Part shown: piece after piece, positions 6,976 through 32,000 of the stretch
Layout of the letters: each line of letters starts with the position of its first letter
Position numbering within the stretch: the stretch's first letter is position 1
NCBI RefSeq assembly: GCF_000392435.1
Contig: NC_021219.1
Span: 120,001-152,000, forward strand
Origin: Candidatus Saccharimonas aalborgensis
GTDB taxonomy: Bacteria > Patescibacteriota > Saccharimonadia > Saccharimonadales > Saccharimonadaceae
Direction of reading: 5' to 3'
Length of the DNA: 32,000 nucleotides
Notes under the pieces: generated by a model
Seen by the model: only the letters and a program-made list of their open reading frames with translations
What the model was told of the DNA's origin: nothing
The model's database searches: none
Translations under genes and position numbers: made by a program

Positions 6976-7050
6976 TGGGGATTCGCCAAGTGGTAAGGCA
7001 CCAGGTTCTGGTCCTGGCATTCGGGGGTTCGAATCCCTCATCCCCAGCCA
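6976..7050 (+). tRNA. tRNA-Gln (anticodon CUG) with encoded CCA
   Basis: Manual cloverleaf: acceptor tggggat/atcccca, D arm gcc/ggc, anticodon arm ccagg-ttCTGgt-cctgg, T arm ggggg-ttcgaat-ccctc, discriminator g, then CCA. Confidence 0.92.
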
Positions 7051-8834
7051 AGAGGAATCTTACCTAAATCAACCATGCTATCGTATGGTTTTTTTAGTTC
7101 TATAACAGGGGTAGAGTCGTGTCCTGCTCGTAGGTTCGACACAAACTCATTACATATCGTATCAAGTACCGTGATGTCAGTGGATTGAAGGAACTCTAAC
7201 ACCTTGAATTTAGTGAGTTCGTAAAATTCTTTCTCAGTGGGCAAAGTAACGTTCAATTTAGCCAGTTCCGCCTTGTTATCTGCAACAGCTTCTTCGTAGT
7301 ATTCGATTAGTTGCTTGTGATGTTCAAGTTTGCCATTGTGGTGTTTCTTATACTCTTCCGGATCATCAACCTGGAACGTCTGATACTTGGCATACTGTCG
7401 TTCGTTCTCTTTTAGTTGTTGTGTAGCTTCAGATAGTTTGTTCTTTATTACCGCTTTATCTGATGCAATACGCTGTTCAAGGCCGTTGATATACATGCGG
7501 TATGCTTCTGTACTCTGTTTCGTGAGATGTCGTAAATGCCACTCAATACCTGCTAGTACATATTTGGCACGGATACTTTTCGAGAGTTTGATCCCACGGT
7601 TCTTTTGTTCTTGTGGGTTATGTCGTAAACAAACCCTGTTCCGGCAGTAGTAACTAATCACATACCTGCCTTTTTTCGTTCCCTTAGTTATCGGCTGGTG
7701 CTGGAATTGCATCGGAACACTACAGTAATCGCAGATCACTTTGTTACGAAGCAGACCGTAGTCTAGCTTCTGAGGCTTACTAGACTTGATCGTACTAGTT
7801 TTACCGAAGTCCTTAGATATATCAGCATTCAGGGCAATGAATTCATCAGGAGAAATAAGCGGCCTAAAGTTGTACTGATCCGTTAGTACAGTCAGTAAAT
7901 TGCCGTACTTGTACAGTCCTAAGTAGAATGGATCTGCAAAGAAATCACCAACCATTTTCTTCGTAAATTTAACCAATCTTGGACTATCATTCTCAAACTT
8001 TCGTTCTGTAAATTTATGATCTAGCAGGAACTGGGCGATCTCTGGATTATTCTTACCCTCGTATAATCGCATATCAACAGCCTTGCGAAGTAATTTCCAG
8101 TTATAATCATCCGGCATAAAGTTCCCAGTTGCTTCATCAACGTAGTAGCCTTTCTTGAGTGAACCATTGTATTTACCTTCGGAGATATTCCCGGTATTAC
8201 CACGCTTCACATCAACTGATAATTTGTCAGAGTACTGCTTTGAAGTTGCGAAGAGTATTCCCAGCATCATCTTGCCGTTCGGGTTATTCTCAAAGGCATA
8301 AGTCCGGAAGTGGAGATCCTGTATAGTCTCTTCGTCAACCATCTCAATCACTTCACCAGCTTCTTTCATGTTGCGAGACAAACGATCAGGAGACCAAGAG
8401 ATAAGCCCGTGATATTTTCCAGTTCTAAAGCCTTGCAGCATTTCATTGAATATCGGTCGATTACCGGACTTTTTAGCTGATGCATGTTCTTCGAATATGT
8501 CTTCATCTCGAATCACTGTCTTAACTGTATTGCTAGCAAGTACTAAACATTCCTTACGTTGATCATCTATCGAACGCACTTGCTTGTCTTCACTATCAGT
8601 AGACTTACGCAAATAGATTGCATACCTACGTTTTGCCGTTGGAAGTAACTGCTTGGCATTGCTGGTCGCTGCTTTAAAGTATTCAGCAAGATCATTGATG
8701 CTTCTCTCGCTACTAGTAATGGCAGTTTCTCGATATGAAGAAGTAAGGTCTTGCAGTTTTTGCAGGGCTATTAGATCAGCCTCATTTGCTAACTGTATAT
8801 CTCGTTTTTTCCGGTTAGTAGTACCCTTTGGCAT
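7038..8834 (-). CDS. Large serine recombinase (LSR1)
   Basis: Resolvase-type N-terminal domain (AIYLRKSTDSEDKQ...SIDDQ, SWSPDRLSRN), a recombinase domain, a Cys-rich zinc ribbon (CDYCSVPM...YYCRNRVC) and a coiled coil. The last 13 nt overlap the tRNA-Gln 3' end. Confidence 0.9.
   Translation of the reverse strand: MPKGTTNRKKRDIQLANEADLIALQKLQDLTSSYRETAITSSERSINDLAEYFKAATSNAKQLLPTAKRRYAIYLRKSTDSEDKQVRSIDDQRKECLVLASNTVKTVIRDEDIFEEHASAKKSGNRPIFNEMLQGFRTGKYHGLISWSPDRLSRNMKEAGEVIEMVDEETIQDLHFRTYAFENNPNGKMMLGILFATSKQYSDKLSVDVKRGNTGNISEGKYNGSLKKGYYVDEATGNFMPDDYNWKLLRKAVDMRLYEGKNNPEIAQFLLDHKFTERKFENDSPRLVKFTKKMVGDFFADPFYLGLYKYGNLLTVLTDQYNFRPLISPDEFIALNADISKDFGKTSTIKSSKPQKLDYGLLRNKVICDYCSVPMQFQHQPITKGTKKGRYVISYYCRNRVCLRHNPQEQKNRGIKLSKSIRAKYVLAGIEWHLRHLTKQSTEAYRMYINGLEQRIASDKAVIKNKLSEATQQLKENERQYAKYQTFQVDDPEEYKKHHNGKLEHHKQLIEYYEEAVADNKAELAKLNVTLPTEKEFYELTKFKVLEFLQSTDITVLDTICNEFVSNLRAGHDSTPVIELKKPYDSMVDLGKIPLGWG
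7071..7095 (+). terminator. tRNA-Gln terminator embedded in the LSR1 coding region
   Basis: Stem aaccat (7071-7076) pairs with atggtt (7085-7090), followed by a T-run. Confidence 0.55.
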
Positions 8835-9829: not shown

Positions 9830-11755
9830 ATGACTAATCTGACAAACATCCTCGCAAAATTGACTGCACTCATCGAAAAAAACAAAGCATACATCATAGA
9901 CGGATCCTTAAATCGAAACCTACTTGCAGCTGATGCTCGTAAGTATGACCCTGAACTACTAAACCTTCTGCAGAAGGATGCTGAACTCAAAGAACACTTC
10001 TTCGCTGCTACTGATGGTGGGCTTGTATTCAAGAAAGATGTTTTCTTGCAGTTCATCATGAACAAAGAGTTTTTGCCGGATAGCTACACAAAGTACAAGA
10101 TCAAGATCGGGCTTGGAGCTGACGACGGATCACTTTTATCGGAGAGTGGAGATGTCGTTCTAAATTGGCCATATAAAGATGCGATCCTTGAAGGCGGACA
10201 GGACAAAGAAGATCAAAAACGAAGCGAAGTCTTTTTCAATGAGGTACTAGCCCCAGATCAAATTACACGCCTGTTCGATGATAAAGTTTTCACTAATTGG
10301 AAACGATACGATAAAGACGGCGAACGCGATCTCGATGAACTTAAAGACGATGACAATTTAATCATCAAAGGCAACAACCTTGTCGTGCTTCATAGTCTCA
10401 AAAAGCGATATGCCGGTAGGGTGAAAATGATCTACATAGATCCGCCTTACAATACCGGAAATGATAGTTTCGGGTATAACGACCGCTTTAATCATGCGTC
10501 TTGGCTAACATTTATGCGGAATAGGCTCAATGCAGCAAAAATGCTTCTCGCTAATGATAGTGTGCTAGCTATTCAGATCGACGATGATGAGCATGCGTAC
10601 CTCAAGGTTTTAGCAGACGAAATCCTTGGAAGAGATAACTTTGTAAAATCGATTGCACTCAAGATGTCTACAGCCTCGGGTGTTAAAACTGCTCACCGTG
10701 ACCGCACTATTTTGAAAGAGAAAGAACATATTCTCATATACAAGAGAGGTACTTTAAGGGTTACACCAGAATACATTAAGGCTGATGAGTGGGATAGTGA
10801 ATTTCAATTCGTACTCGAAGGAAAAGAATCTGGTAAGTATAAAGTTATAAAACTTAGTGAATACTTAAAGCAGAATAATATCGATGCAAATGCCAACAGT
10901 GACGAATTCAAAGAGTTCGTGATAAAAAATGCCGATATCATCTGGAGACGAGCATTCATCAGGGGTTCATGGAAGGAAAAATCACTTGCGAATCCTAGTG
11001 AAGTGATAGTCAATAAGGGAGAAAACGGGATCGCATACTACTATGGTGGTCGGCAAATGTACTTCTATAAAGAGAAATTTCATGAATTTTATGATGAGAA
11101 TACAAAAAAGTTTGGCCCGAGCAGTTTACTTGGAGATCTGTGGGCGGATATTAATACTGGGCGTATTTTTAATGAAGGCGGAGTAGAACTAAGAAACGGT
11201 AAAAAAGCAGAACAGATTCTAGCAAGGCTATTGCGAATGTTTACAAAGCCTGGCGATCTGGTGATGGATTATCATTTAGGCTCAGGAACTACCTCAGCCG
11301 TTGCTCATAAGATGGGTCGGCAATACATTGGCATTGAACAGCTCTACTATGGCGATAACGATCCTATGAATCGATTACAGAATGTCATTAACGGTGATCA
11401 GTCAGGCATTAGCAAAGGTGTAAACTGGCAAGGAGGGGGCAGCTTTGTTTATGCGAACATTATGAACAATTCGAACAAGTTCCGAAAGCGAGTTGAGGCT
11501 GCTATGAATGATTCAGATTATTTAGCTCTGTTAAAGGAAGCGACTTCGTCTTCATTCCTGAGTTACCGTGTTGATCCTAAGAAACTCAACGAAGAAGAAT
11601 TCCGGAAACTAAGTTCCGCTGAAAAACGACGGCTCCTACTTGAACTTATCGATAATAATACTCTCTACGTAAATTATGAAGACATCAATGATCCTCTATT
11701 CAAGGTGAGTGAAAAAGATAAAGAGTTTAACAAGAAGCTTTACGAAAAGAATTAA
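9830..11755 (+). CDS. mod: Type III restriction-modification methyltransferase (Mod)
   Basis: Catalytic motif IYIDPPYNTGND followed later by the AdoMet motif DYHLGSGTT (beta-class order). It lies directly upstream of res. Confidence 0.9.
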   Translation: MTNLTNILAKLTALIEKNKAYIIDGSLNRNLLAADARKYDPELLNLLQKDAELKEHFFAATDGGLVFKKDVFLQFIMNKEFLPDSYTKYKIKIGLGADDGSLLSESGDVVLNWPYKDAILEGGQDKEDQKRSEVFFNEVLAPDQITRLFDDKVFTNWKRYDKDGERDLDELKDDDNLIIKGNNLVVLHSLKKRYAGRVKMIYIDPPYNTGNDSFGYNDRFNHASWLTFMRNRLNAAKMLLANDSVLAIQIDDDEHAYLKVLADEILGRDNFVKSIALKMSTASGVKTAHRDRTILKEKEHILIYKRGTLRVTPEYIKADEWDSEFQFVLEGKESGKYKVIKLSEYLKQNNIDANANSDEFKEFVIKNADIIWRRAFIRGSWKEKSLANPSEVIVNKGENGIAYYYGGRQMYFYKEKFHEFYDENTKKFGPSSLLGDLWADINTGRIFNEGGVELRNGKKAEQILARLLRMFTKPGDLVMDYHLGSGTTSAVAHKMGRQYIGIEQLYYGDNDPMNRLQNVINGDQSGISKGVNWQGGGSFVYANIMNNSNKFRKRVEAAMNDSDYLALLKEATSSSFLSYRVDPKKLNEEEFRKLSSAEKRRLLLELIDNNTLYVNYEDINDPLFKVSEKDKEFNKKLYEKN

Positions 11756-11773
11756 CGAGGATTATCGATCATT

Positions 11774-14422
11774 ATGAATAATAATCCTCAAGACAAAATG
11801 CTTAAAAGTGACGAATACGATATCCTGAGTCGATTTCAGGGTGGTTTTACGACAGTACCTGAGCACATATCACTCAATCTTCGCCATGAACTAAGGCCAT
11901 ATCAGACGGAAGCACTCGGACGGTATTTGCATTACTACGATAGCGACAAGAATCGTGATCAAACTCGTGGCATGCAATTGCTTTTCAACATGGCAACCGG
12001 ATCCGGCAAGACGATGATCATGGCGGCACTTCTGCTTGATCTATATAAGCGTGGACAGAACAAGATCGTATTCTTTGTGAATACCACCAACATCATCGAG
12101 AAGACACGAGAGAATTTTCTCGATTCGTCTTCTAGTAAGTACCTCTTCGCTGAAAAGATTGTCATCGATGGTGAAGTTGTAAACGTTCGTGAACTAACTG
12201 ACTTTTCTGATGCACGTGATGATTCGATCAATATCGTCTTCACGACTATCCAAGGGCTACACACTACGCTCAAAGCACCTAGAGAAAACAGTTTAACGTA
12301 TGACGACCTGACTGAACATGATCTCGTACTGTTAAGCGATGAAGCACACCATTTGAACGGTGATACCAAGAAGCTAAACGCTGATGAGAAAAAAGATAAT
12401 ACTTCATGGGAGAGTACGATTAATGCCGTCATGAACGGCAACCCTATGAACCATCTCTTTGAGTTTACGGCAACGATTGATCTTGATGATAAAGAGATCT
12501 TCTACAAGTACAAGAACCGTATCATCTACCGCTACGACCTCCGAGCATTTCGTGAAGACGGCTACAGCAAAGATGTCTGGATCTATGACGTTGCAGCCGA
12601 TCTCATGGATCGTGCTATTCAAGCAATGATCATCTCACAGTACCGTAAGAAAATCGCATTGGCAGCTGGCGTCTGGCTCAAGCCGGTCATTCTCTTTAAG
12701 TCATTCAGGATCGCAGATGCAAATGACTTCTATGATGAATTTGTACTGAAGGTTAAATCAATTTCACATACTGACATTGATAAACAACGTAAGATCGCAA
12801 CCGGGATTCTCGAACGTGCATTTGCGTACTTCGATCAAGAAGGTATCAGTGGATCCGATCTTGCAGATGAACTTCGTTTCGACTTTGCGGAAGAACGACT
12901 AATATCAGTCACTAAAAAAGCTATCACCCCAGAAGATCAACAACGACTCAATTCACTGGAAGATCGGGACAATGAGATCCGTGCAGTATTTGCTGTTGAC
13001 GTGTTGGATGAAGGCTGGGATGTCTTGAACCTCTTCGATATCGTTCGCCTGTATGACACACGTGACAGCAAGAACGGACGACCCGGTAAGACAACGATGC
13101 GAGAAGCACAGTTAATCGGCCGTGGAGCCAGGTATTATCCGTTTGTATTAGATGGAGATGAAGAGAAACGATTCGTTCGGAAGTTTGATGACAATGAGCT
13201 AGAACCACTCCGTGTTATTGAGCAACTGCACTATCATTCAGCAAGTAATCCAAAATACATCCAGGAGATTCGTCAGACACTTCGTGAGACGGGTATTATG
13301 CCGGATATCAACACGGTTAAGCGTGAATTAAATCTGAAAGACTCGTTCAAGGAATCTCACACTTACAAAACGGGTGTCGTCTGGAAGAACGAGCAAGTTG
13401 AAGCCACTGCTATTCCTGAGCAGACGGTATTCCTCGGAGGAGAAGGATACAAACTGCAAGATATTTATGAGATATCTGTTCCTGTAGGCATCTCCCACGA
13501 CCGTCAGATCTTTGTAGATAATAGTGATCTCGAGGCACAAACAAGAAGCGAAGAGCATACCTTCAATGTTACGTTCTCAAGATTCCCTAAGAACCTTGTA
13601 CGTCATGCGGTGGATCGTAACAAAAAACTCCGATATGACATTGTCTCAGAAAAGATTAGTGGTCTCGTTAGTCTTGAAGGCTTCTTGACCGGAGATAAGC
13701 AGCTAGGCGGCGTTAAGATCGCCGTAACAGCTGGAGTTGATCGATACGAAAAACTTACCACAGACGAGCGTCTGTTCATCGTAGAGAAGCTGCTCGCATT
13801 AGTTGCAAATGATATTGCACTGAATGAAAAGAGCTTCGAGGGCACAAAAGAATTTAAGCCTCATCCAATCAAGGAAGTGTTTGATGAACGCATTCTTAGG
13901 AATTACACGATTACAAACAATGATGCGGAGTTCGGCATCTCACAATCTCACCCGGGTAGCTATGATCAACGAGGATCACAATACTATCTCGATCTTTCAA
14001 AAGAAGATTGGCATGTATACGATGACAACTTCGGAACATCTGAAGAAAAGAAACTTGTTCTACTCATGAAGAAACTCATCGAAGATCTCCGTGAAAAATG
14101 GGACGATATCTATCTTGTTCGCAATGAAGGATCATTCAAGATCTACGAATTTGGCAAACCTGGACGTGCTTTCGAACCTGACTATGTGCTGTTTGCAAAT
14201 GACAAACGCAACGCTTCAGTTAGCTGGCAGATATTTATTGAGCCTAAAGGTAACCACTTGATTGAGCACGATGCATGGAAACAAGACTTCTTATTGAAGC
14301 TCAGTAAGGAAGCAAAGATAGTCGGTGAAGACGCAGATACCCGAGTGATCGGAGTACCATTCTTTAATGGTGATATAGAAAAACAATCACACGTCATTGA
14401 AGAAGCTTTAAAAGCACTATAA
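11774..14422 (+). CDS. res: Type III restriction enzyme, Res subunit
   Basis: Helicase motifs NMATGSGKT and LLSDEAHH. The C-terminal PD-(D/E)xK-like nuclease motif is EPDYVLF...IFIEPKG. Confidence 0.9.
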   Translation: MNNNPQDKMLKSDEYDILSRFQGGFTTVPEHISLNLRHELRPYQTEALGRYLHYYDSDKNRDQTRGMQLLFNMATGSGKTMIMAALLLDLYKRGQNKIVFFVNTTNIIEKTRENFLDSSSSKYLFAEKIVIDGEVVNVRELTDFSDARDDSINIVFTTIQGLHTTLKAPRENSLTYDDLTEHDLVLLSDEAHHLNGDTKKLNADEKKDNTSWESTINAVMNGNPMNHLFEFTATIDLDDKEIFYKYKNRIIYRYDLRAFREDGYSKDVWIYDVAADLMDRAIQAMIISQYRKKIALAAGVWLKPVILFKSFRIADANDFYDEFVLKVKSISHTDIDKQRKIATGILERAFAYFDQEGISGSDLADELRFDFAEERLISVTKKAITPEDQQRLNSLEDRDNEIRAVFAVDVLDEGWDVLNLFDIVRLYDTRDSKNGRPGKTTMREAQLIGRGARYYPFVLDGDEEKRFVRKFDDNELEPLRVIEQLHYHSASNPKYIQEIRQTLRETGIMPDINTVKRELNLKDSFKESHTYKTGVVWKNEQVEATAIPEQTVFLGGEGYKLQDIYEISVPVGISHDRQIFVDNSDLEAQTRSEEHTFNVTFSRFPKNLVRHAVDRNKKLRYDIVSEKISGLVSLEGFLTGDKQLGGVKIAVTAGVDRYEKLTTDERLFIVEKLLALVANDIALNEKSFEGTKEFKPHPIKEVFDERILRNYTITNNDAEFGISQSHPGSYDQRGSQYYLDLSKEDWHVYDDNFGTSEEKKLVLLMKKLIEDLREKWDDIYLVRNEGSFKIYEFGKPGRAFEPDYVLFANDKRNASVSWQIFIEPKGNHLIEHDAWKQDFLLKLSKEAKIVGEDADTRVIGVPFFNGDIEKQSHVIEEALKAL

Positions 14423-16784: not shown

Positions 16785-17630
16785 TCAGCGCTTGCGACGA
16801 AACGTGGGCATCATCTCAGGAATTGATTCTTTGACGCGGACAATATGCGACCGCACGGGTCGGCCAAAATAGTTACCGACGCTGGCGCCGGCGGCAATCG
16901 ATAGCGCAACACTGAGCGCCGTCAGGAGCAGCATGTTGCCTTCTGCGACCGATGATGCGGAGGGCTTATCGACAAACTGCATTAACCCGTTGTAGAGCGC
17001 GAGTCCCGGCACCAACGGCACAACACCGGCATCGATGAGAGCGATCGATGGCGAACGATACACACGAGCGATGATTGCCCCCGCAAATCCGACTAATACT
17101 GCTGCAACACCGTTTGCCAGTGCCTCGCCACTTGCAGCGGTCAACATATAGACGCCCCATCCCAACCCACCGATTATTCCCGCCCACACGACAGCAGCGA
17201 GTTTCGACTGCATAAACAACGCCCAACCCGCTGCAATAACAACCGCACCCATCACTTGCCAAAATGGATCACCGAGTGCCACAGGATCAGGTGATACAGC
17301 AATTTTACTTCCTGCCGCGTGAGCGACCAAAAGCCCGATCACAATCCCCATCACAATTCCGGCAGTCATCACAAATGTCTTCATGAAACGCGCACTCGCC
17401 GTCACATAGAACTCGTCGATCGCATCCTGAGCAGTCGCCACCACCATAAGGCCAGCCACCAGCATGACAATCCCCCCGACAACGATGAGCGTGGGATTAA
17501 CGCCAACAAACGGCCAGACGCCGCGATTGCCAAGCTCCACAACCAACGTTGCACTCATAGTAATCGTAAACGAAGATATCGCTTGAACAAAAAAACTAAG
17601 CACCTGCCGGGCTTCAAGCCAGCGAATCAC
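16785..17630 (-). CDS. ThrE-family (threonine/serine exporter-like) membrane protein, C-terminal part
   Basis: ~9 TM segments, Gly/Ala-rich. The GTG start overlaps the upstream ORF by 17 nt. Confidence 0.65.
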   Translation of the reverse strand: MIRWLEARQVLSFFVQAISSFTITMSATLVVELGNRGVWPFVGVNPTLIVVGGIVMLVAGLMVVATAQDAIDEFYVTASARFMKTFVMTAGIVMGIVIGLLVAHAAGSKIAVSPDPVALGDPFWQVMGAVVIAAGWALFMQSKLAAVVWAGIIGGLGWGVYMLTAASGEALANGVAAVLVGFAGAIIARVYRSPSIALIDAGVVPLVPGLALYNGLMQFVDKPSASSVAEGNMLLLTALSVALSIAAGASVGNYFGRPVRSHIVRVKESIPEMMPTFRRKR

Positions 17631-18150
17631 GGTCGACCAAGCATCCTACCAAAAAAGTTGTCACCACAACAACCCACGAATTGGTAAATAACATCGTCGC
17701 ACCAGCGGTCACGCTCGCGTTTCCGATCATCGTCAGCCAACTTGGGTAGGTTGGCTTGACAGCAATTATTTTTTCGAATCTCGCTTCCGCCGAATCGAGA
17801 CTGAGTCCTCCGCGAATACTCCTCACCAAATCTTGCATCTCTTGGACAATAAGATTGTTGGGATTTTGCATCGAAACGGTGCGAATGAGCGTCAAGGGTT
17901 CTCGATCAATACCGCGATCCTGCGATGCCATGATAGACGTAGCGTTGATATCAATATGCACCCGCCGCTGACAAAGTGTCTCGGTTATATCCAGTGCGCT
18001 ATCTACTACATCGTGTGCCGACACGCCGTGACAAAGCAGCTGCTCGGCAATACGCATCGTCAGGCGTAGTGCCCGCATATTTGGTGTCAGATCACGACCA
18101 ACTTTTTGGGTATCAGTAGCAGCAGGAGTGATTGCCCTCTCATAAATCAT
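17614..18150 (-). CDS. ThrE-family protein, N-terminal (DUF1212-like) part
   Basis: A soluble N-terminal region (LRLTMRIAEQLLCHGVSAHDVVDSALDIT) is followed by the first TM segments. The ORF ends within what is normally a continuous domain. Confidence 0.65.
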   Translation of the reverse strand: MIYERAITPAATDTQKVGRDLTPNMRALRLTMRIAEQLLCHGVSAHDVVDSALDITETLCQRRVHIDINATSIMASQDRGIDREPLTLIRTVSMQNPNNLIVQEMQDLVRSIRGGLSLDSAEARFEKIIAVKPTYPSWLTMIGNASVTAGATMLFTNSWVVVVTTFLVGCLVDRDSLA

Positions 18151-22988: not shown

Positions 22989-23483
22989 CTACAGCCCCTC
23001 CTGTCGAATACGTTTCTTGGCAAGCAACATTAGCTTTCCTATATCTTCATATTCAATGAGATCAAGTGCTTCGGCAAAGGAAAACCACTTGATACCATTC
23101 ATCCATTCTTCTTTCTGTATCGCATTGGTATCGCCCTTTGCTCGCACGAGATATATTTGCGTTGTCATGAGAACAAGTCGATCGAGCCGACGATAGCGAA
23201 AATGTATCTTACCTAACCAACCGAGCATATCAACATCTGTCAGGCCGGCCTCCTCGCCAATCTCGCGACGTGCCGTCTGCAGCGCCGTCTCGCCTTCTTC
23301 GATATGACCTTTTGGAATTGTCCATCGATCTTTTGCATCCTGAATCAATAGAATCTCTAAGTCACCCGTCTTACCATGACGAAATACAATCCCGCCGCTA
23401 GTAGGCTCGCGGACGATTTCTTGGATGGATGGCTTGTGTTTACCTAAATATTTCTTAAAACGATCAAACTTTGGCGCCGGCAT
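22989..23483 (-). CDS. Nudix hydrolase (164 aa)
   Basis: Nudix box GHIEEGETALQTARREIGEEAGL. The start is set at MPAPKF (23483). The longer track ORF runs through nusB in another frame. Confidence 0.85.
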   Translation of the reverse strand: MPAPKFDRFKKYLGKHKPSIQEIVREPTSGGIVFRHGKTGDLEILLIQDAKDRWTIPKGHIEEGETALQTARREIGEEAGLTDVDMLGWLGKIHFRYRRLDRLVLMTTQIYLVRAKGDTNAIQKEEWMNGIKWFSFAEALDLIEYEDIGKLMLLAKKRIRQEGL

Positions 23484-23983: not shown

Positions 23984-24127
23984 CTACTTTTTCTTGCCCG
24001 TCTCGTTTTTTGTGGTACGGACTTTGACGGGTGATGTGGCATTTACCTTACGCGCAAGCTTGAGCACCAGGTGGCTGCGACGTAGACCTGTCTTGCGAGG
24101 GCTCGTCTGCTTCTTTGGCTGTGCCAT
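23984..24127 (-). CDS. rpmF: 50S ribosomal protein L32 (47 aa)
   Basis: My own translation gives MAQPKKQTSPRKTGLRRSHLVLKLARKV... (the MAxPKxKxS...RRSH pattern). An AGGAG RBS is present. The ORF is below the track length cutoff. Confidence 0.85.
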   Translation of the reverse strand: MAQPKKQTSPRKTGLRRSHLVLKLARKVNATSPVKVRTTKNETGKKK

Positions 24128-24321: not shown

Positions 24322-24615
24322 ATGTTCTACAACATCGCTGTGTACGCCGGCCTAACCGTCCTCGAGGCGATTGCCATCGTGATGATGGCGCGATCAGTCC
24401 AGGACGCGCAGACGCGCCGGCTCGGCGCGGCCATCATCCTGGCGGTCTGCGCCGTGGCCGCCTACCTCGGCGTTTGGGTTTCCCCCGCGAGGGGGAGTGC
24501 CGCCGAGGATGGCCTGCGGCCGTTCCTCTGGTTCGGCCTTCTGAACGTCATCGCGTTCGTGGTCTTCGTGATCACGTCGCGGCTGAAGTACGGAAAGCCC
24601 CGCTCCTCCTCGTGA
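24322..24615 (+). CDS. GC-rich 3-TM membrane protein (97 aa)
   Basis: AGGAGG RBS, with third codon positions nearly all G/C. It has three hydrophobic helices. The terminator-like hairpin agccccgc/gcggggct lies at 24596-24625. Confidence 0.6.
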   Translation: MFYNIAVYAGLTVLEAIAIVMMARSVQDAQTRRLGAAIILAVCAVAAYLGVWVSPARGSAAEDGLRPFLWFGLLNVIAFVVFVITSRLKYGKPRSSS

Positions 24616-24657: not shown

Positions 24658-27531
24658 TTAGACAACGATACTCAATAATTTGTGTTTGATGTAGATAATC
24701 TTTTTTGGCTCACCACTGAGATAGCCCGCTACAGCATGATCAGCAAGCGCCAGCGCCGTAATCTCTGCCTCATCTTTGTCGACACCGACAGTGAGTTTAG
24801 CACGAACCTTGCCATTGACTTGCACCACAATCGTCATCGTATCGCTCACCAAATATTCGTCATTCCATGCAGGCCACCCAGACTCTTCAAGCGAAGATTC
24901 GTTGCCGAGCTGTTGCCATAGCTCAGCGCCAAGGTGGGGAGCCATCGGTGCGATCAGGCGGGCGAGCGCATCAACAGCTTCTGCCCACTCTGGCCCCGCG
25001 AAGCCATCCAGCTTGTACTTGTAGAGTTCGTTGACGTATTCCATCAATGCGGCAATTGCCGTGTTGAAGCTTAATCGACGATAATCATCAGTTACTTTCC
25101 TGATAGTGCGATGCGTCAAAGAGCGGACTGCAGTCGCCTGCGCGGAAGTGCCTTCATGATCGCTCTCCAGGTATTCCTGTGTCAGTGTCCAAGTACGATT
25201 GAGAAATCGATAGATCCCGGCGATTCCCCGACTACTCCAGCTCGAGTTTTCGTTGATTGGCCCGAGAAACAGACAAAATACTCTGAGAGCGTCGGCACCA
25301 TACCCCTGATCGATAACATCCAGCGGATCGACGACATTGCCGAGACTCTTGCTCATCTTTCGTCCATCCTCGGCACCTATGAGCCCGTGATACACCAGTT
25401 GTTTGACAGGCTCATCGAACTCAACTAGTCCCATGTCGCGAAAAACGTGTGTCCAGAAGCGTACATAGAGCAGATGAGCGACTGCGTGATCGCCACCAAC
25501 GTACATGTCGAGTGGTGCCCAAAAATCCGCTTTTTCTTTCGACCATGGTGCATGCTCATTGAGCGGATCAGTGTAGCGAAAGAGGTACCACGACGAACAC
25601 GCGTAGCCATCCATCGTATCGGTCTCGCGCTGTGCCGGACCGCCACAGGCTGGGCACGTGGTATTAACCCAATCTGTTTCGCGTGCAAGTACAGACTTTC
25701 CATCACCTTTTGGTGCATGATCTTCGACAGGCGGCAACAACACCGGCAACTCATCGGCCGGTACGGCTACCGCACCATCCTTTTCGCAGTGAATAATCGG
25801 GATCGGCGCGCCCCAATACCGCTGACGGCTCACCAGCCAGTCACGCATCTTGTAGGTTATCTTTGCACGACCTATCCCCTGTTGTTCGAGCCACGCAACG
25901 ACTTGCTCGCGCGCTTCATAACTTGTCATTCCATCAAATATACCGGAATGCACCAGTACGCCTTCGTTTGCGAACAGATTTTTTTCTCCCTCAAGCCATC
26001 GCAAAATATGCTGAAGCTCAGAAATGGGTTTTAACGTGGGCAAGACGTCTTTTTTCACCCACATGGGCTCAAAGTCTTCATGAGCTTCACGCTGAAGCTC
26101 GACGGAATCAAGTGAGTTGAGACGAAAGCGCACAACAGTCGTCAGAATATTACGGTTGACATCCTTGTGGGCAGCATAAAACTTACTGTTTATCTTTGCG
26201 GGCATGGCCTCAATAAACGTCATATCGGTATAACCGGTTTCCTCTGCGATTTCTCGCCGCGCCGCTTCTTCGGCCGTTTCGCTATCCTCGACACCGCCCA
26301 TGACAAATCCGTGCCATGGCAGCTTATTCCACTTGAGCGTCAGGTACTCGCCATTTGTCGGGTGTTCGATAATACACATTACGACATTTCTATCAGTGTC
26401 TTGTTTGCCTTTTTGAGGGGGATTTTCCTGATCATAGAGGCTTTCGGCGATGACCTGAACAATCGGTAAATCAAACTTCGATGCAAATTCATAGTCACGG
26501 GTATCATGAGCTGGCACCGCCATGATTGCACCCGTGCCATAGCCCCAAAGCACATAGTCGGCTACCCATATCGGGATACGTTCACCGTTCGCAGGATTGA
26601 TGGCATAGGAGCCCGTTGGAACACCCGTTTTTTCTTTGCCCTCGCTCATTCGCTCTATTTCTGAACGCTTCAGAGACGCATCAATATATGACTTTACTAC
26701 CTCGTAAGTATCAGCGTTCGTAAGCTCAAGGGCAAGTGGGTGTTCGGGAGCAAGCACGAGAAAGGTCGCACCAAATACCGTATCGGGGCGTGTCGAAAAA
26801 ACGGTTAATTGTGCTTTGGTTTTTTCGACAGAGAAGGTAATCTCTGCCCCCTGGCTCTTGCCAATCCAGTTTTCCTGCGCGGTCTTGATTTTATCTGGCC
26901 AATTGAGAGCCGGCAACTCCTCAAGCAATGCCTCGGCATAATCAGTAATCTTGAAAAACCACTGTTTCATCGATTTCTTCACTACTTCGTTTTCGCAGCG
27001 CCAGCATTTGCCGTCGATCACCTGTTCGTTCGCAAGTACGGTCTTATCGACAGGACACCACCACTGCATCGATTCTTTTTGATATGCTAAGCCACGCTTG
27101 AAAAATTCAGCAAAAATCCACTGCGTCCATTTATAATATGACGGATCGCTGGTGTTGATTTCTCGCGACCAGTCGAGGCTTGCTCCCATGCGCACAAGCT
27201 GATTCTTGAAGCTAGCGATATTGTAACGCGTCGTTTCGGCAGGTGGTTTGCCAGTCTTGATCGCATAATTTTCTGCAGGCAGACCAAAGGCATCCCATCC
27301 CATAGGGTTAAGTACGTTGTAGCCCTGTTGTCGATGAAACCGCGCTACCGAGTCGACAATGGCATGCTCAAAGGCGTGCCCAGTATGCATGCCGGCCCCG
27401 CTGGGGTAAGGAAACATGCAAGAAATATAGTATTTATTTTTGGCCGAATCCTCGACAACATCATAGCGATGGTCGTTCGCCCATTGTTGTTGCCATTTTG
27501 GCTCGATACTTGCAGGATCATAGCGCTTCAT
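24658..27531 (-). CDS. leuS: Leucine--tRNA ligase carrying an inserted Nudix domain
   Basis: Segments PYPSGAGMHTGHA (HIGH-type), AVPAHDTRDYEF, RDWLVSRQRYWGAPIP and KMSKS. The start is set at MKRYDPASIEPKWQ (27531), 7 nt after a TATACT box. Confidence 0.92.
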   Translation of the reverse strand: MKRYDPASIEPKWQQQWANDHRYDVVEDSAKNKYYISCMFPYPSGAGMHTGHAFEHAIVDSVARFHRQQGYNVLNPMGWDAFGLPAENYAIKTGKPPAETTRYNIASFKNQLVRMGASLDWSREINTSDPSYYKWTQWIFAEFFKRGLAYQKESMQWWCPVDKTVLANEQVIDGKCWRCENEVVKKSMKQWFFKITDYAEALLEELPALNWPDKIKTAQENWIGKSQGAEITFSVEKTKAQLTVFSTRPDTVFGATFLVLAPEHPLALELTNADTYEVVKSYIDASLKRSEIERMSEGKEKTGVPTGSYAINPANGERIPIWVADYVLWGYGTGAIMAVPAHDTRDYEFASKFDLPIVQVIAESLYDQENPPQKGKQDTDRNVVMCIIEHPTNGEYLTLKWNKLPWHGFVMGGVEDSETAEEAARREIAEETGYTDMTFIEAMPAKINSKFYAAHKDVNRNILTTVVRFRLNSLDSVELQREAHEDFEPMWVKKDVLPTLKPISELQHILRWLEGEKNLFANEGVLVHSGIFDGMTSYEAREQVVAWLEQQGIGRAKITYKMRDWLVSRQRYWGAPIPIIHCEKDGAVAVPADELPVLLPPVEDHAPKGDGKSVLARETDWVNTTCPACGGPAQRETDTMDGYACSSWYLFRYTDPLNEHAPWSKEKADFWAPLDMYVGGDHAVAHLLYVRFWTHVFRDMGLVEFDEPVKQLVYHGLIGAEDGRKMSKSLGNVVDPLDVIDQGYGADALRVFCLFLGPINENSSWSSRGIAGIYRFLNRTWTLTQEYLESDHEGTSAQATAVRSLTHRTIRKVTDDYRRLSFNTAIAALMEYVNELYKYKLDGFAGPEWAEAVDALARLIAPMAPHLGAELWQQLGNESSLEESGWPAWNDEYLVSDTMTIVVQVNGKVRAKLTVGVDKDEAEITALALADHAVAGYLSGEPKKIIYIKHKLLSIVV
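25978..26400 (-). other. Nudix-fold insertion inside leuS (about residues 395-535 of the track ORF)
   Basis: Nudix box GGVEDSETAEEAARREIAEETGY is encoded at 26230-26298. Confidence 0.8.
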
Positions 27532-27591
27532 TGGCATTAGTATACCAAAATCGCCCCTGATTGTCAGGGGCGATCGTTGCATCTGTCTTAC

Positions 27592-30492: not shown

Positions 30493-30646
30493 TGAGAATC
30501 TCCGGCAGAGATTCGGAAACGGACTTTCCGATGAAAACTACGTTTTCAATAGTGAAATCCGGGGGTCGCGGGACGTGACCTGCCTTGCAAGGCCAAGGAA
30601 GCTAACACAGGAGCGCACCTCGTACGCACATTGTTACCAACCATAC
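30493..30646 (+). other. Structured spacer between the orphan fragment and the intact tRNA-Gly
   Basis: It opens with the hairpin gaatctc/gagattc (30496-30514), then cggaaa/tttccg and gaaaac/gttttc hairpins and the motif cgcgggacgtg. It also holds an anticodon-arm-like piece, ccttgc-aagg-ccaaggaag. Confidence 0.5.
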
Positions 30647-32000
30647 GCGGGTTTAGCTCAGTTGTTAGAGCGCTTCCTTGCCAAGGAAGAGGTCGAGAGT
30701 TAGAGTCTCTTAACCCGCACCAAATATTTGAATTATGAGCCGAAAGGCTCTTTTTCTTTGCCTCAACGATGGTTCTAAAGGGGTCGTTTAGTATATAAGA
30801 CAGCTTTTTGTCCTTTAATTCAATGTTTGAAAGTACGTATTCCAATAACTTCTGTCGTAGCCCCTCATCGCTCTCTTTGAACAACTGGTCAGCCCGTTGA
30901 GCCAAGTCTAACAGGTAAGAGGCGGTTACTTGGAACTGTTTGTTATCATTTGTTAGCAACTTTAGGCGGTCATTCAGTTCCTGCTGTTTCTTTTCTAGCT
31001 CAGTTGCAATTTCATCGTGGAATGTCTGTGTAATACGACCCTCAAGTAAGTCATAGTAAACCTTACGCATTTTGTCCTTGAGCTTGTCGTACTCAGCACG
31101 GGTCTGCTCAATGTTTTGCGTAAAGTAGGTTTGCTGGTCGTTATGACGGTTACGCAGCTCGGCAATGACTTTATCTAACCAATTTTCTGGCACGTCTATA
31201 AACCCTATATCTGCCGCTACTTCATCAATTACGAGGCTCACGGCTGTATTAGGATTATCGCACTTGGAGTTAGCACATCGCAAATACACTGTGTTGCGAG
31301 CCTTGAATGGCGATACTGCACGTCCGCACTTGCCGCACTTCACTATCTTTTTGAGTGTAAAGTCTTTGCTATCGTACTTAGTCTTTTCGTGTTTACGCTC
31401 ATCACGGACACGCTGCACTTGGTTGAACAAGGCACGGCTGATTAGCGGCTTGTACTTGTGTGGGTACTCTCTGCCAGCGTGTACCATAACGCCATAGTAG
31501 AATGGGTTGCTCAAGATGCGTTCAAGAAACTGCTTACTTGGTGCTTTACTGCCAGCGATATTGCTACGAAAACCCATCTCACGAAGTTCTTTTGCAATGA
31601 CAGCATACGACATACCTCTTGCTCGCAGTTCATACGCTTTTACAATGTAGTGTGCCTTTGCATCATCAACTTCAATATCTTTGAGTGGTTTCTGTGGCGT
31701 ACCGCCCTTCAGCACGTTTAGATAGCCAATAGGAGCACGATGTACCCAAATGCCCTCACTCAGCATCTGCTCAAAGCGGCGTTTTACATTATCACGGATA
31801 CTATCTGAGTAGTATTTTGCCAGTGCCATACCAATACCTAGCCGAAACCAATCAGCAGCCGATGAGTTTTTATCAATGTACAGGCTATCGTTAGGGAAGT
31901 GCAGCTCAATCTTGCCTTGTTTGACCAACTGCTGCAATGCTTTTACTTCTTCTTGGCTACTATCACGAGTAAGGCGGTCTATCTTATCAAAGACTACGTA
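30546..32000 (-). CDS. Large serine recombinase (LSR2); the N-terminus lies beyond the window end
   Basis: The frame is open to the window edge (YVVFDKIDRLTRDSSQEEV..., the resolvase DRLxR motif). It has a zinc ribbon CGKCGRAV...RCANSKCDN and a coiled coil. The ORF reads antisense through tRNA-Gly. Confidence 0.85.
   Translation of the reverse strand, partial: YVVFDKIDRLTRDSSQEEVKALQQLVKQGKIELHFPNDSLYIDKNSSAADWFRLGIGMALAKYYSDSIRDNVKRRFEQMLSEGIWVHRAPIGYLNVLKGGTPQKPLKDIEVDDAKAHYIVKAYELRARGMSYAVIAKELREMGFRSNIAGSKAPSKQFLERILSNPFYYGVMVHAGREYPHKYKPLISRALFNQVQRVRDERKHEKTKYDSKDFTLKKIVKCGKCGRAVSPFKARNTVYLRCANSKCDNPNTAVSLVIDEVAADIGFIDVPENWLDKVIAELRNRHNDQQTYFTQNIEQTRAEYDKLKDKMRKVYYDLLEGRITQTFHDEIATELEKKQQELNDRLKLLTNDNKQFQVTASYLLDLAQRADQLFKESDEGLRQKLLEYVLSNIELKDKKLSYILNDPFRTIVEAKKKSLSAHNSNIWCGLRDSNSRPLPWQGSALTTELNPRMVGNNVRTRCAPVLASLALQGRSRPATPGFHY
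30647..30722 (+). tRNA. tRNA-Gly (anticodon GCC) with encoded CCA and an unusual elbow
   Basis: Manual cloverleaf: acceptor gcgggtt/aacccgc, D arm gctc-agttgtta-gagc, anticodon arm cttcc-ttGCCaa-ggaag, T arm gagag-ttagagt-ctctt. Confidence 0.85.
30737..30755 (+). terminator. tRNA-Gly terminator embedded in the LSR2 reading frame
   Basis: gagcc-gaaa-ggctc followed by TTTTT. Confidence 0.6.

Follow-up and report, generated by a model that had tools for sequence, protein, structure and literature searches.

The stretch of DNA analysed here, 32,000 nucleotides of Candidatus Saccharimonas aalborgensis (contig NC_021219.1, positions 120,001 to 152,000 of the forward strand; hereafter the window, whose own numbering we use), contains a leuS gene whose product, a leucyl-tRNA synthetase (LeuRS), carries a complete and apparently active Nudix hydrolase domain nested within its CP1 editing domain. 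In its longest open reading frame (ORF) the gene spans 24658..27582 on the minus strand, as do all leuS features given below, and runs uninterrupted in one continuous frame for 974 amino acids (aa). Its homologues begin at MKRYNP in an alignment of relatives and for this reason M18, at nucleotide (nt) 27531, is probably the true start, which would give a protein of 957 aa. The product scores 988.9 bits against the bacterial LeuRS model TIGR00396 (leuS_bact; cut-off 548.4) in two stretches that flank the insert, which places it in that family, and it matches the LeuRS of Thermus thermophilus (Tt; sequence of 1h3n) at E = 9.6e-244. Pfam matches, the alignment to 1h3n and motif positions assign the N-terminal half of the catalytic (Rossmann) core to 26875..27531. 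The rest of CP1 falls within 24661..25977, together with the C-terminal half of the core, the anticodon-binding domain and the C-terminal domain. The part of CP1 that precedes the insert (aa 237-379, 26446..26874), recognised by PF13603, holds the threonine-rich editing motif STRPDT (aa 263-268, nt 26779-26796) and AHDTRD, in which the conserved aspartates of the editing site lie (aa 358-363, nt 26494-26511), and across 113 aligned LeuRS sequences the T, R, D and T of the editing site and both aspartates are invariant. Both class I signatures are found in the product, the HIGH-type motif as HTGH (aa 66-69, nt 27376-27387) and KMSKS (aa 742-746, nt 25345-25359). The leucine-specific domain of the T. 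thermophilus enzyme (about residues 580-637) has no counterpart in the window protein. Altogether these features describe a complete and presumably working bacterial LeuRS.

The insert lies between ...FDLPIVQVIA (aa 370-379) and NEGVLVHSGIFDG (aa 539-551), which are separated by 159 residues. Query residues 18-379 align with Tt 1-363 and residues 536-737 with Tt 376-579, and an insert of ~156 residues stands in place of a 12-residue Tt loop (Tt 364-375); LeuRS orthologues that have no insert carry a 10-residue loop at the same site. The replaced loop lies inside CP1, which in T. thermophilus spans Tt 224-417. The PF13603 match itself (aa 237-384) ends at model position 146, having begun at position 1 of 185, because the insert cuts the editing domain. 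The Nudix domain was delimited to aa 380-535 (25978..26445) from the PF00293 match, the translation, AlphaFold2 and Foldseek. The Pfam NUDIX model PF00293 covers aa 401-516 at E = 2.4e-11 (44.2 bits, cut-off 21.1), and the 23-residue Nudix box, GGVEDSETAEEAARREIAEETGY (aa 429-451, nt 26230-26298), fits GX5EX7REUXEEXGU. Downstream of the box, the X-loop with the family motif KFYAAHKDVNR (aa 467-477, 26152..26184) is marked by its conservation across 112 inserts. When the full-length protein was modelled with AlphaFold2 from a 113-sequence alignment, the mean predicted local distance difference test score (pLDDT) was 88 and the predicted template modelling score (pTM) 0.78, with the insert at 89-96 and both junctions confident; the insert modelled alone reached a pLDDT of 93.7 and a pTM of 0.87. 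Foldseek matched the insert model to Nudix structures at a probability of 1.00, identifying it as an alpha/beta/alpha Nudix fold. The insert is thus a complete Nudix domain, which by its motifs and modelled fold appears catalytically competent. The original prediction had described an uninterrupted leuS with the usual LeuRS landmarks and, in frame where ordinary LeuRS has only a short loop, a whole Nudix domain with beta-strand-like flanks whose catalytic motif is intact, and all of this is upheld by the profile search, the alignment and the predicted structure. Its coordinates, 25978-26400, do cover aa 395-535 and fall short of the entire insert. The converse view, that this is a common variable region of LeuRS without a Nudix fold, fails.

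A chimeric join in the assembly at 25.9-26.4 kb, which would make the fusion an artefact of assembly or annotation, can be set aside as vanishingly improbable. An identical 959-aa protein is encoded on an ENA metagenome contig from an independent assembly, where leuS is followed in the same order as in the window by a small antisense ORF, a 47-aa ORF, nusB and the Nudix gene, the contig ending in a partial ORF at the position of rnc. More than 100 homologues share the architecture, the frame is continuous and AlphaFold2 is confident at the junctions. We also considered whether the insert is an intein and rejected this: the junctions ...VIA|ESLYD and ...GEKN|LFANEG have no splicing residues and Pfam gives no match to a Hint or intein domain. 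Nor does the insert bear the border signature of a mobile element. No flanking repeats were found around it in the window sequence, splicing residues are absent and there is no compositional anomaly, the guanine-plus-cytosine (GC) content being 47.2% in the insert, 50.9% in the LeuRS core and 46.8% in the window.

The pattern of conservation among related inserts points to an enzyme. In 112 LeuRS proteins with an insert, the Nudix box positions are occupied by G in 112/112, R in 106/112, E in 112/112, 112/112 and 111/112, and G in 112/112; in one small subclade M replaces the box R and Q the first box E. Outside the box, Y or F stands at the position of Y469 in 96/112 sequences, and K473 (111/112), N476 (101/112) and W508 (112/112) are similarly retained. 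The near-invariance of the catalytic glutamates and arginine and of the family lysine and tryptophan, in inserts that are otherwise very divergent, argues for selection for an enzyme function. The nearest structures by Foldseek are Escherichia coli RppH (E = 6e-10, TM 0.69) and, closely behind, NudI, an Enterococcus faecalis MutT/Nudix protein and diadenosine tetraphosphate (Ap4A) hydrolases, and the nearest by profile are the decapping effector AvrM14, a lupin Ap4A hydrolase, NudI and RppH (E = 1e-10 to 1e-8). The X-loop, about 17 residues downstream of the box, has a role in substrate specificity (PMC5389931), and a tyrosine in this loop, about 16-18 residues past the box, correlates with activity on diadenosine polyphosphates (Dunn et al. 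1999, summarised in PMC5389931). Y469 lies 18 residues past the box, within this range. None of the curated Nudix subfamily models recognises the insert, and the best-scoring NCBIfam equivalogs, two for RppH, fall far short (PRK00714.1-3, 27.2 bits against 118; PRK00714.1-5, 23.6 against 116). Membership of a defence or phage family was likewise rejected, PADLOC returning just a 19.7-bit generic match and PHROGs only generic Nudix families. The insert is therefore most aptly placed in a Nudix subfamily of its own, on the side of the superfamily that holds RppH, the Ap_nA hydrolases and the decapping enzymes.

A survey of related genomes established that this genome is not alone in having the insert. 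Of the best 120 homologues of the window LeuRS, which are 57-70% identical to it and were drawn from NCBI, JGI, ENA and Logan, 111 carry one; their available source names are Candidatus Saccharibacteria or Saccharimonas. The other nine are insert-less proteins of ~810 aa with the 10-residue loop. Two of these insert-less leuS genes were checked and both lie at the matching syntenic position, with no free-standing Nudix of the insert type within 10 kb on either side. When a single genome from each GTDB species was scanned with an insert profile, 80 loci were obtained, 75 of which have their Nudix match within a LeuRS ORF. The records are labelled Saccharibacteria, Paceibacterota/Parcubacteria, Berkelbacteria, Moraniibacteriota, Taylorbacteria, Adlerbacteria and low-GC uncultured Bacilli/Tenericutes. 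Judged from these genomes, the insert is the usual state of LeuRS in Saccharibacteria and occurs widely across Patescibacteria. Low-GC gut metagenome-assembled genomes also have this Nudix, at the identical site in CP1; they are labelled Bacilli, Bacillales, Tenericutes or Muribaculaceae (L023, L034, L037, L038, L051, L054, L056, L057, L061-L065, L071, L073 and L074). Five of their LeuRS proteins that we compared (L023, L037, L056, L073 and L074) are 49-72% identical to one another and 40-47% identical to those of Patescibacteria, and the GC content is 27-35% in the five genomes measured. This clade may reflect an ancient origin, lateral transfer or mislabelled bins.

The inserts are far more variable than the enzyme that carries them. 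Over 6216 pairs of proteins the LeuRS core is on average 72% identical and the insert 33%, and the two identities correlate poorly (r = 0.25). One pair of alleles, P0109 and P0123, has cores that are about 99% identical and Nudix inserts that are just 24% identical, P0109 having in addition a serine-hydrolase module. At the DNA level (L082 4001-7423 for P0109, L083 878-3745 for P0123) the flanks, neighbouring genes included, show 98.9-99.4% identity and CP1 between the hot spots is 91% identical, with no detectable DNA similarity between the two cassettes, so that the difference takes the form of a ~1.4-kb mosaic patch. This pattern indicates a mosaic leuS, formed when members of effectively a single species recently exchanged the inserted modules by recombination.

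The position and number of the modules vary as well. An exhaustive search with the insert gave 354 cluster representatives, of which the best 150 were mapped with a hidden Markov model of the insert and the insert-less LeuRS core; the statements on sites, copies and hosts that follow refer to these 150. Members of the subfamily also occur as free-standing proteins of 150-190 aa, and none of five free-standing loci has leuS beside it. Within LeuRS, Nudix domains occupy the canonical CP1 site, the core/CP1 junction or first CP1 hairpin (Q 224-255; single or in tandem), Q 601-605 and Q 641-651, with up to three copies per protein. Copies inside one LeuRS are 20-47% identical, and each can have positional counterparts elsewhere that are up to 60-74% identical, which suggests that the divergent copies have different specificities. 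One Nudix type can also sit at different sites, as at site 227 in L030 and site 379/538 in P0145 (66% identity). The LeuRS hot spots of relatives accept other modules too: Ser_hydrolase-type alpha/beta hydrolases, ASCH domains, HAD phosphatases (following a Nudix domain in P0139, aa 648-857), Ham1/ITPase (E = 4e-54) and, in frame, DUF559 endonuclease-like modules (P0226 aa 248-402, E = 7e-31; P0254 aa 337-499, E = 1.5e-26). In-frame modules of relatives also span aa 958-1152 of P0182 and aa 69-272 of the L076 ORF. At least two further types of insert have no Pfam match, one reading YRSYVMGQ...FWNEYVGE and another, ASCH-like by eye, GTKTIETRALNPEE....

These observations lead us to propose, with a probability of roughly 0.5, that the insert is an active and independent Nudix pyrophosphatase and one of a set of exchangeable "house-cleaning" cassettes held in permissive LeuRS loops of reduced-genome lineages. 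On this proposal the Nudix domain, displayed on a surface loop of CP1, would be a self-contained, Mg-dependent pyrophosphatase acting on a nucleoside-polyphosphate compound; candidate substrates include a dinucleoside polyphosphate, an NDP-X compound, a non-canonical nucleoside triphosphate or an RNA 5' end. Its activity would be one of house-cleaning or salvage, expressed together with LeuRS and not a step in leucylation or editing. Nudix would be the commonest of several interchangeable cassettes (Nudix, Ham1/ITPase, HAD phosphatase, serine hydrolase, ASCH), which Patescibacteria and a few other reduced-genome lineages may hold in a small number of permissive LeuRS loops and swap by recombination.

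Some of the same observations could be read differently, with the surface loops of leuS as landing sites for mobile in-frame elements and the insert as neutral or selfish cargo, or as a non-catalytic structural addition. The in-frame DUF559 modules of P0226 and P0254, the patchy spread with insert-less orthologues, the mosaic patch that separates P0109 from P0123 and the occurrence of one module type at different sites (L030, P0145) would all fit such a history. A passenger or a purely structural element is hard to reconcile with catalytic residues and family lysine and tryptophan that are essentially invariant over 112 divergent inserts, and the base composition of the insert is like that of the gene, with neither flanking repeats nor intein junctions or a Hint match. 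We therefore regard mere cargo as quite improbable.

The proposal of an independent cassette has to be set against the range of proteins that host the subfamily. Among the long proteins of the best 150 matches, all identified hosts are aminoacyl-tRNA synthetases, nearly all of them LeuRS and one a prolyl-tRNA synthetase (ProRS). P0189, of 643 aa, is an archaeal-type ProRS with a Nudix domain of the insert subfamily between its anticodon-binding and C-terminal domains; P0275 and P0276 are ProRS fragments of the same architecture (58% and 50% identity), and the nearest insert-less relatives of this type of ProRS are named Nanoarchaeota. By domain architecture, then, the subfamily is fused to a class II enzyme, ProRS, independently of its fusion to the class I enzyme LeuRS. 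A host range limited to synthetases implies that simple co-expression is an insufficient explanation and hints at a tie to synthetase chemistry or to tRNA; two independent hosts of this kind are hard to explain by chance and keep a synthetase- or tRNA-linked role alive. The label "house-cleaning" also derives, for the other modules, from family names. All of these points weigh against our proposal.

One synthetase-linked role was put forward in the original prediction: the Nudix domain could be coupled to the synthetase and clear, at source, the Ap4A or related Ap_nN that LeuRS makes, or misactivated adenylates. Synthetases do produce Ap4A out of aminoacyl-adenylate and ATP, and the separate fusions of one Nudix subfamily to two unrelated synthetases (LeuRS on the one hand and the ProRS type of P0189, P0275 and P0276 on the other) favour a link of some kind. 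Among the closest neighbours of the insert by structure and sequence are the Ap4A hydrolases of lupin and Aquifex as well as RppH, an enzyme that hydrolyses Ap_nA too. The aromatic residue 18 positions past the box, present in 96/112 inserts, is consistent with such a substrate, a tyrosine there being the mark of Ap_nA hydrolases (PMC5389931). Against this, a separate Nudix gene lies on the minus strand at 22989..23483, between nusB and rnc and 1.2 kb from leuS (PF00293, E = 2e-18), and its product is far nearer to Ap4A hydrolases: its best solved relatives, matched over their full length, are Aquifex 3i7u (E = 2.9e-14), then Ndx1, CT771, human NUDT2 and Caenorhabditis elegans 1kt9. The cell thus probably has an Ap4A hydrolase already. 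This gene is kept between nusB and rnc in all four related loci examined, two of which have an insert-less LeuRS, and its presence with or without the insert weakens Ap4A clearance as the reason for the insert. The stand-alone gene had been correctly predicted, and so the insert had been taken for an additional copy of it; this does not stand, nor does recent duplication, since the two share 35% identity over just 54 residues and belong to different subfamilies, the stand-alone protein being the one with Ap4A/Ap6A hydrolase relatives.

Further evidence runs the same way. Orthologous LeuRS proteins of the same lineage do without an insert, the RppH equivalogs are missed widely (23-27 bits against cut-offs of 116-118), and two or three divergent Nudix copies, as well as unrelated Ham1 and HAD modules, can occupy the same loops, and this too speaks against the insert being there specifically to clear Ap4A. 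As for misactivated adenylates, an aminoacyl-adenylate is not a nucleoside diphosphate derivative, and its hydrolysis is not among the known Nudix reactions. The up to three Nudix copies, the unrelated hydrolases and DUF559 modules at the hot spots and the cassette swaps suggest something broader than a single LeuRS-specific coupling. Clearance of Ap4A at source is accordingly still conceivable, helped by the ProRS fusion and weakened by the separate Ap4A-type gene, and we hold it to be a doubtful explanation that nonetheless deserves a hearing.

A second possibility linked to synthetases is that the target is RNA. The Nudix domain and, alongside it, the HAD, esterase and ASCH modules of relatives could strip unwanted groups from tRNA or RNA termini as part of a repair or counter-toxin toolkit, with targets such as the 3'-pyrophosphate left by RelA/SpoT-homologue toxins or 5' triphosphate, NAD or Np4A caps. 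CP1 handles the CCA end of tRNA and most insertions lie in CP1, although some sites are outside it. The best solved relatives of the insert are RppH and AvrM14, relatives with tandem Nudix domains match a Nudt16-like family, and all the identified hosts bind tRNA. Fast evolution and strain-level exchange of cassettes resemble what is seen at loci under conflict, and a Nudix domain followed by a HAD phosphatase, as in P0139, could in theory leave a hydroxyl where a terminal diphosphate had been. This support is circumstantial; Ham1/ITPase modules work on free nucleotides, and PADLOC and PHROGs offer only generic Nudix similarity. We consider this explanation unlikely. An extension of it, in which swappable hydrolase cassettes (Nudix, HAD, esterase, ASCH) would be docked on the LeuRS of Patescibacteria and on the ProRS of some DPANN-like archaea and would process the tRNA ends that these synthetases receive, is if anything a slightly longer shot. 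It would explain both the restriction of hosts to synthetases and the swapping of cassettes between strains and, if true, would amount to a tRNA-repair or counter-toxin system under diversifying selection that removes 3'-pyrophosphate, acyl groups or caps.

Whichever role applies, a Nudix domain of catalytic type nested in the editing domain of LeuRS is, from its sequence and predicted structure, a new architectural variant. The original prediction knew of no such insertion, and our search of the searchable library for work on LeuRS or other synthetases with Nudix domains, in Saccharibacteria, Patescibacteria or the CPR or in connection with Ap4A, found no published description either. To our knowledge, a hydrolase nested in the editing domain has not been reported before. 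A survey of the Nudix clan from 2017 (PMC5389931) is silent on both tRNA and synthetases. Compared with bacterial LeuRS of known structure (1h3n/2byt and the E. coli 4aq7 family), the window protein shares the full domain set from the Rossmann core to the C-terminal domain and differs in having a 156-residue Nudix domain instead of a loop of 10-12 residues and in having no leucine-specific domain (about Tt 580-637). With RppH/NudH (6vck/4s2y), the Aquifex (3i7u) and lupin (1f3y) hydrolases and AvrM14 (8dp8), the insert has the fold, the box and the X-loop aromatic residue in common, but it is just 17-24% identical to them at a TM score of 0.6-0.7, has its own K473, N476 and W508, and is nested instead of standing alone.

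The addition of unrelated domains to synthetases is not in itself without parallel. Eukaryotic synthetases carry appended domains, and an isoleucine--tRNA ligase with an N-acetyltransferase domain (NCBIfam NF040702) is likewise a synthetase with an unrelated added domain. The window LeuRS differs from these cases in that a hydrolase is nested in the editing domain and that the type, number and site of the modules vary among close relatives and are swapped between strains. NadM-Nudix proteins (NMN adenylyltransferase/ADP-ribose pyrophosphatase; NADM_SYNY3 is mentioned in PMC5389931) also join a Nudix domain to an adenylate-handling enzyme; there, however, the fusion is end to end and has a clear metabolic link, whereas the LeuRS insert is internal. 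Finally, the LeuRS inserts recall inteins and homing endonucleases in being in frame, patchy and laterally exchanged, and relatives have DUF559 modules at the same sites. Inteins and homing endonucleases are in-frame insertions in conserved essential genes. The LeuRS insert, in contrast, has neither a Hint domain nor junction residues, is presumably kept in the mature protein and has a motif under selection.

Several other features of the window can be recorded here. Between leuS and rpmF, antisense to leuS, lies a 97-codon ORF (24322-24615, plus strand) with hydrophobic stretches, by eye a membrane protein, whose GC content of 66.7% compares with 46.8% for the window and may point to a high-GC organism as its source; related loci have small antisense ORFs at the same position. 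A GC-rich, hairpin-like inverted repeat stands directly past the leuS stop codon, and scanning the GC-rich region that follows leuS against Rfam gave no credible RNA family. The next gene, a 47-codon ORF on the minus strand (23984-24127) beginning MAQPKKQTSPRKTGLRRSH..., resembles by eye ribosomal protein bL32 (rpmF), and a gene of similar size is called there in related loci. Further away, a large serine recombinase with Resolvase and Recombinase domains (7038-8834, minus strand) meets a tRNA gene (6976-7047, plus strand), and an ORF that matches only the Recombinase domain (30546-31937, minus strand) overlaps another (30647-30719, plus strand); a recombinase ORF that abuts or overlaps a tRNA gene, here seen twice, is the usual signature of integrative elements at tRNA genes. 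Downstream of the 7038-8834 recombinase, a type III restriction-modification pair (9830-14422, plus strand), comprising Mod with N6_N4_Mtase and TypeIII_RM_meth and Res with ResIII and helicase domains, may be part of a mobile island. A ThrE-family exporter is split over two overlapping minus-strand ORFs, 16785-17630 and 17614-18150, with the N-terminal part of ThrE in one and the C-terminal part and ThrE_2 in the other; two genes or a frameshift could account for this.

Few enzymes are as conserved as the aminoacyl-tRNA synthetases, and extra catalytic domains are rare in the bacterial ones. Proteins such as the one described here are annotated merely as leucine--tRNA ligase or as "class I tRNA ligase family protein", and any additional activities are thereby hidden from metabolic reconstructions based on genomes. 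The case is amenable to a direct test, the domain being small and its catalytic residues obvious, and genetic tools now exist for cultivated members of the Saccharibacteria, a lineage of ultra-small, host-dependent bacteria. The LeuRS of this lineage tolerates variable and exchangeable enzyme modules and appears to benefit from them. If these modules are house-cleaning enzymes, an essential gene would here offer minimal genomes a novel means of carrying and exchanging accessory metabolism; if their targets are the products of the synthetase or tRNA ends, they would add a new tier to the quality control of translation or to defence.

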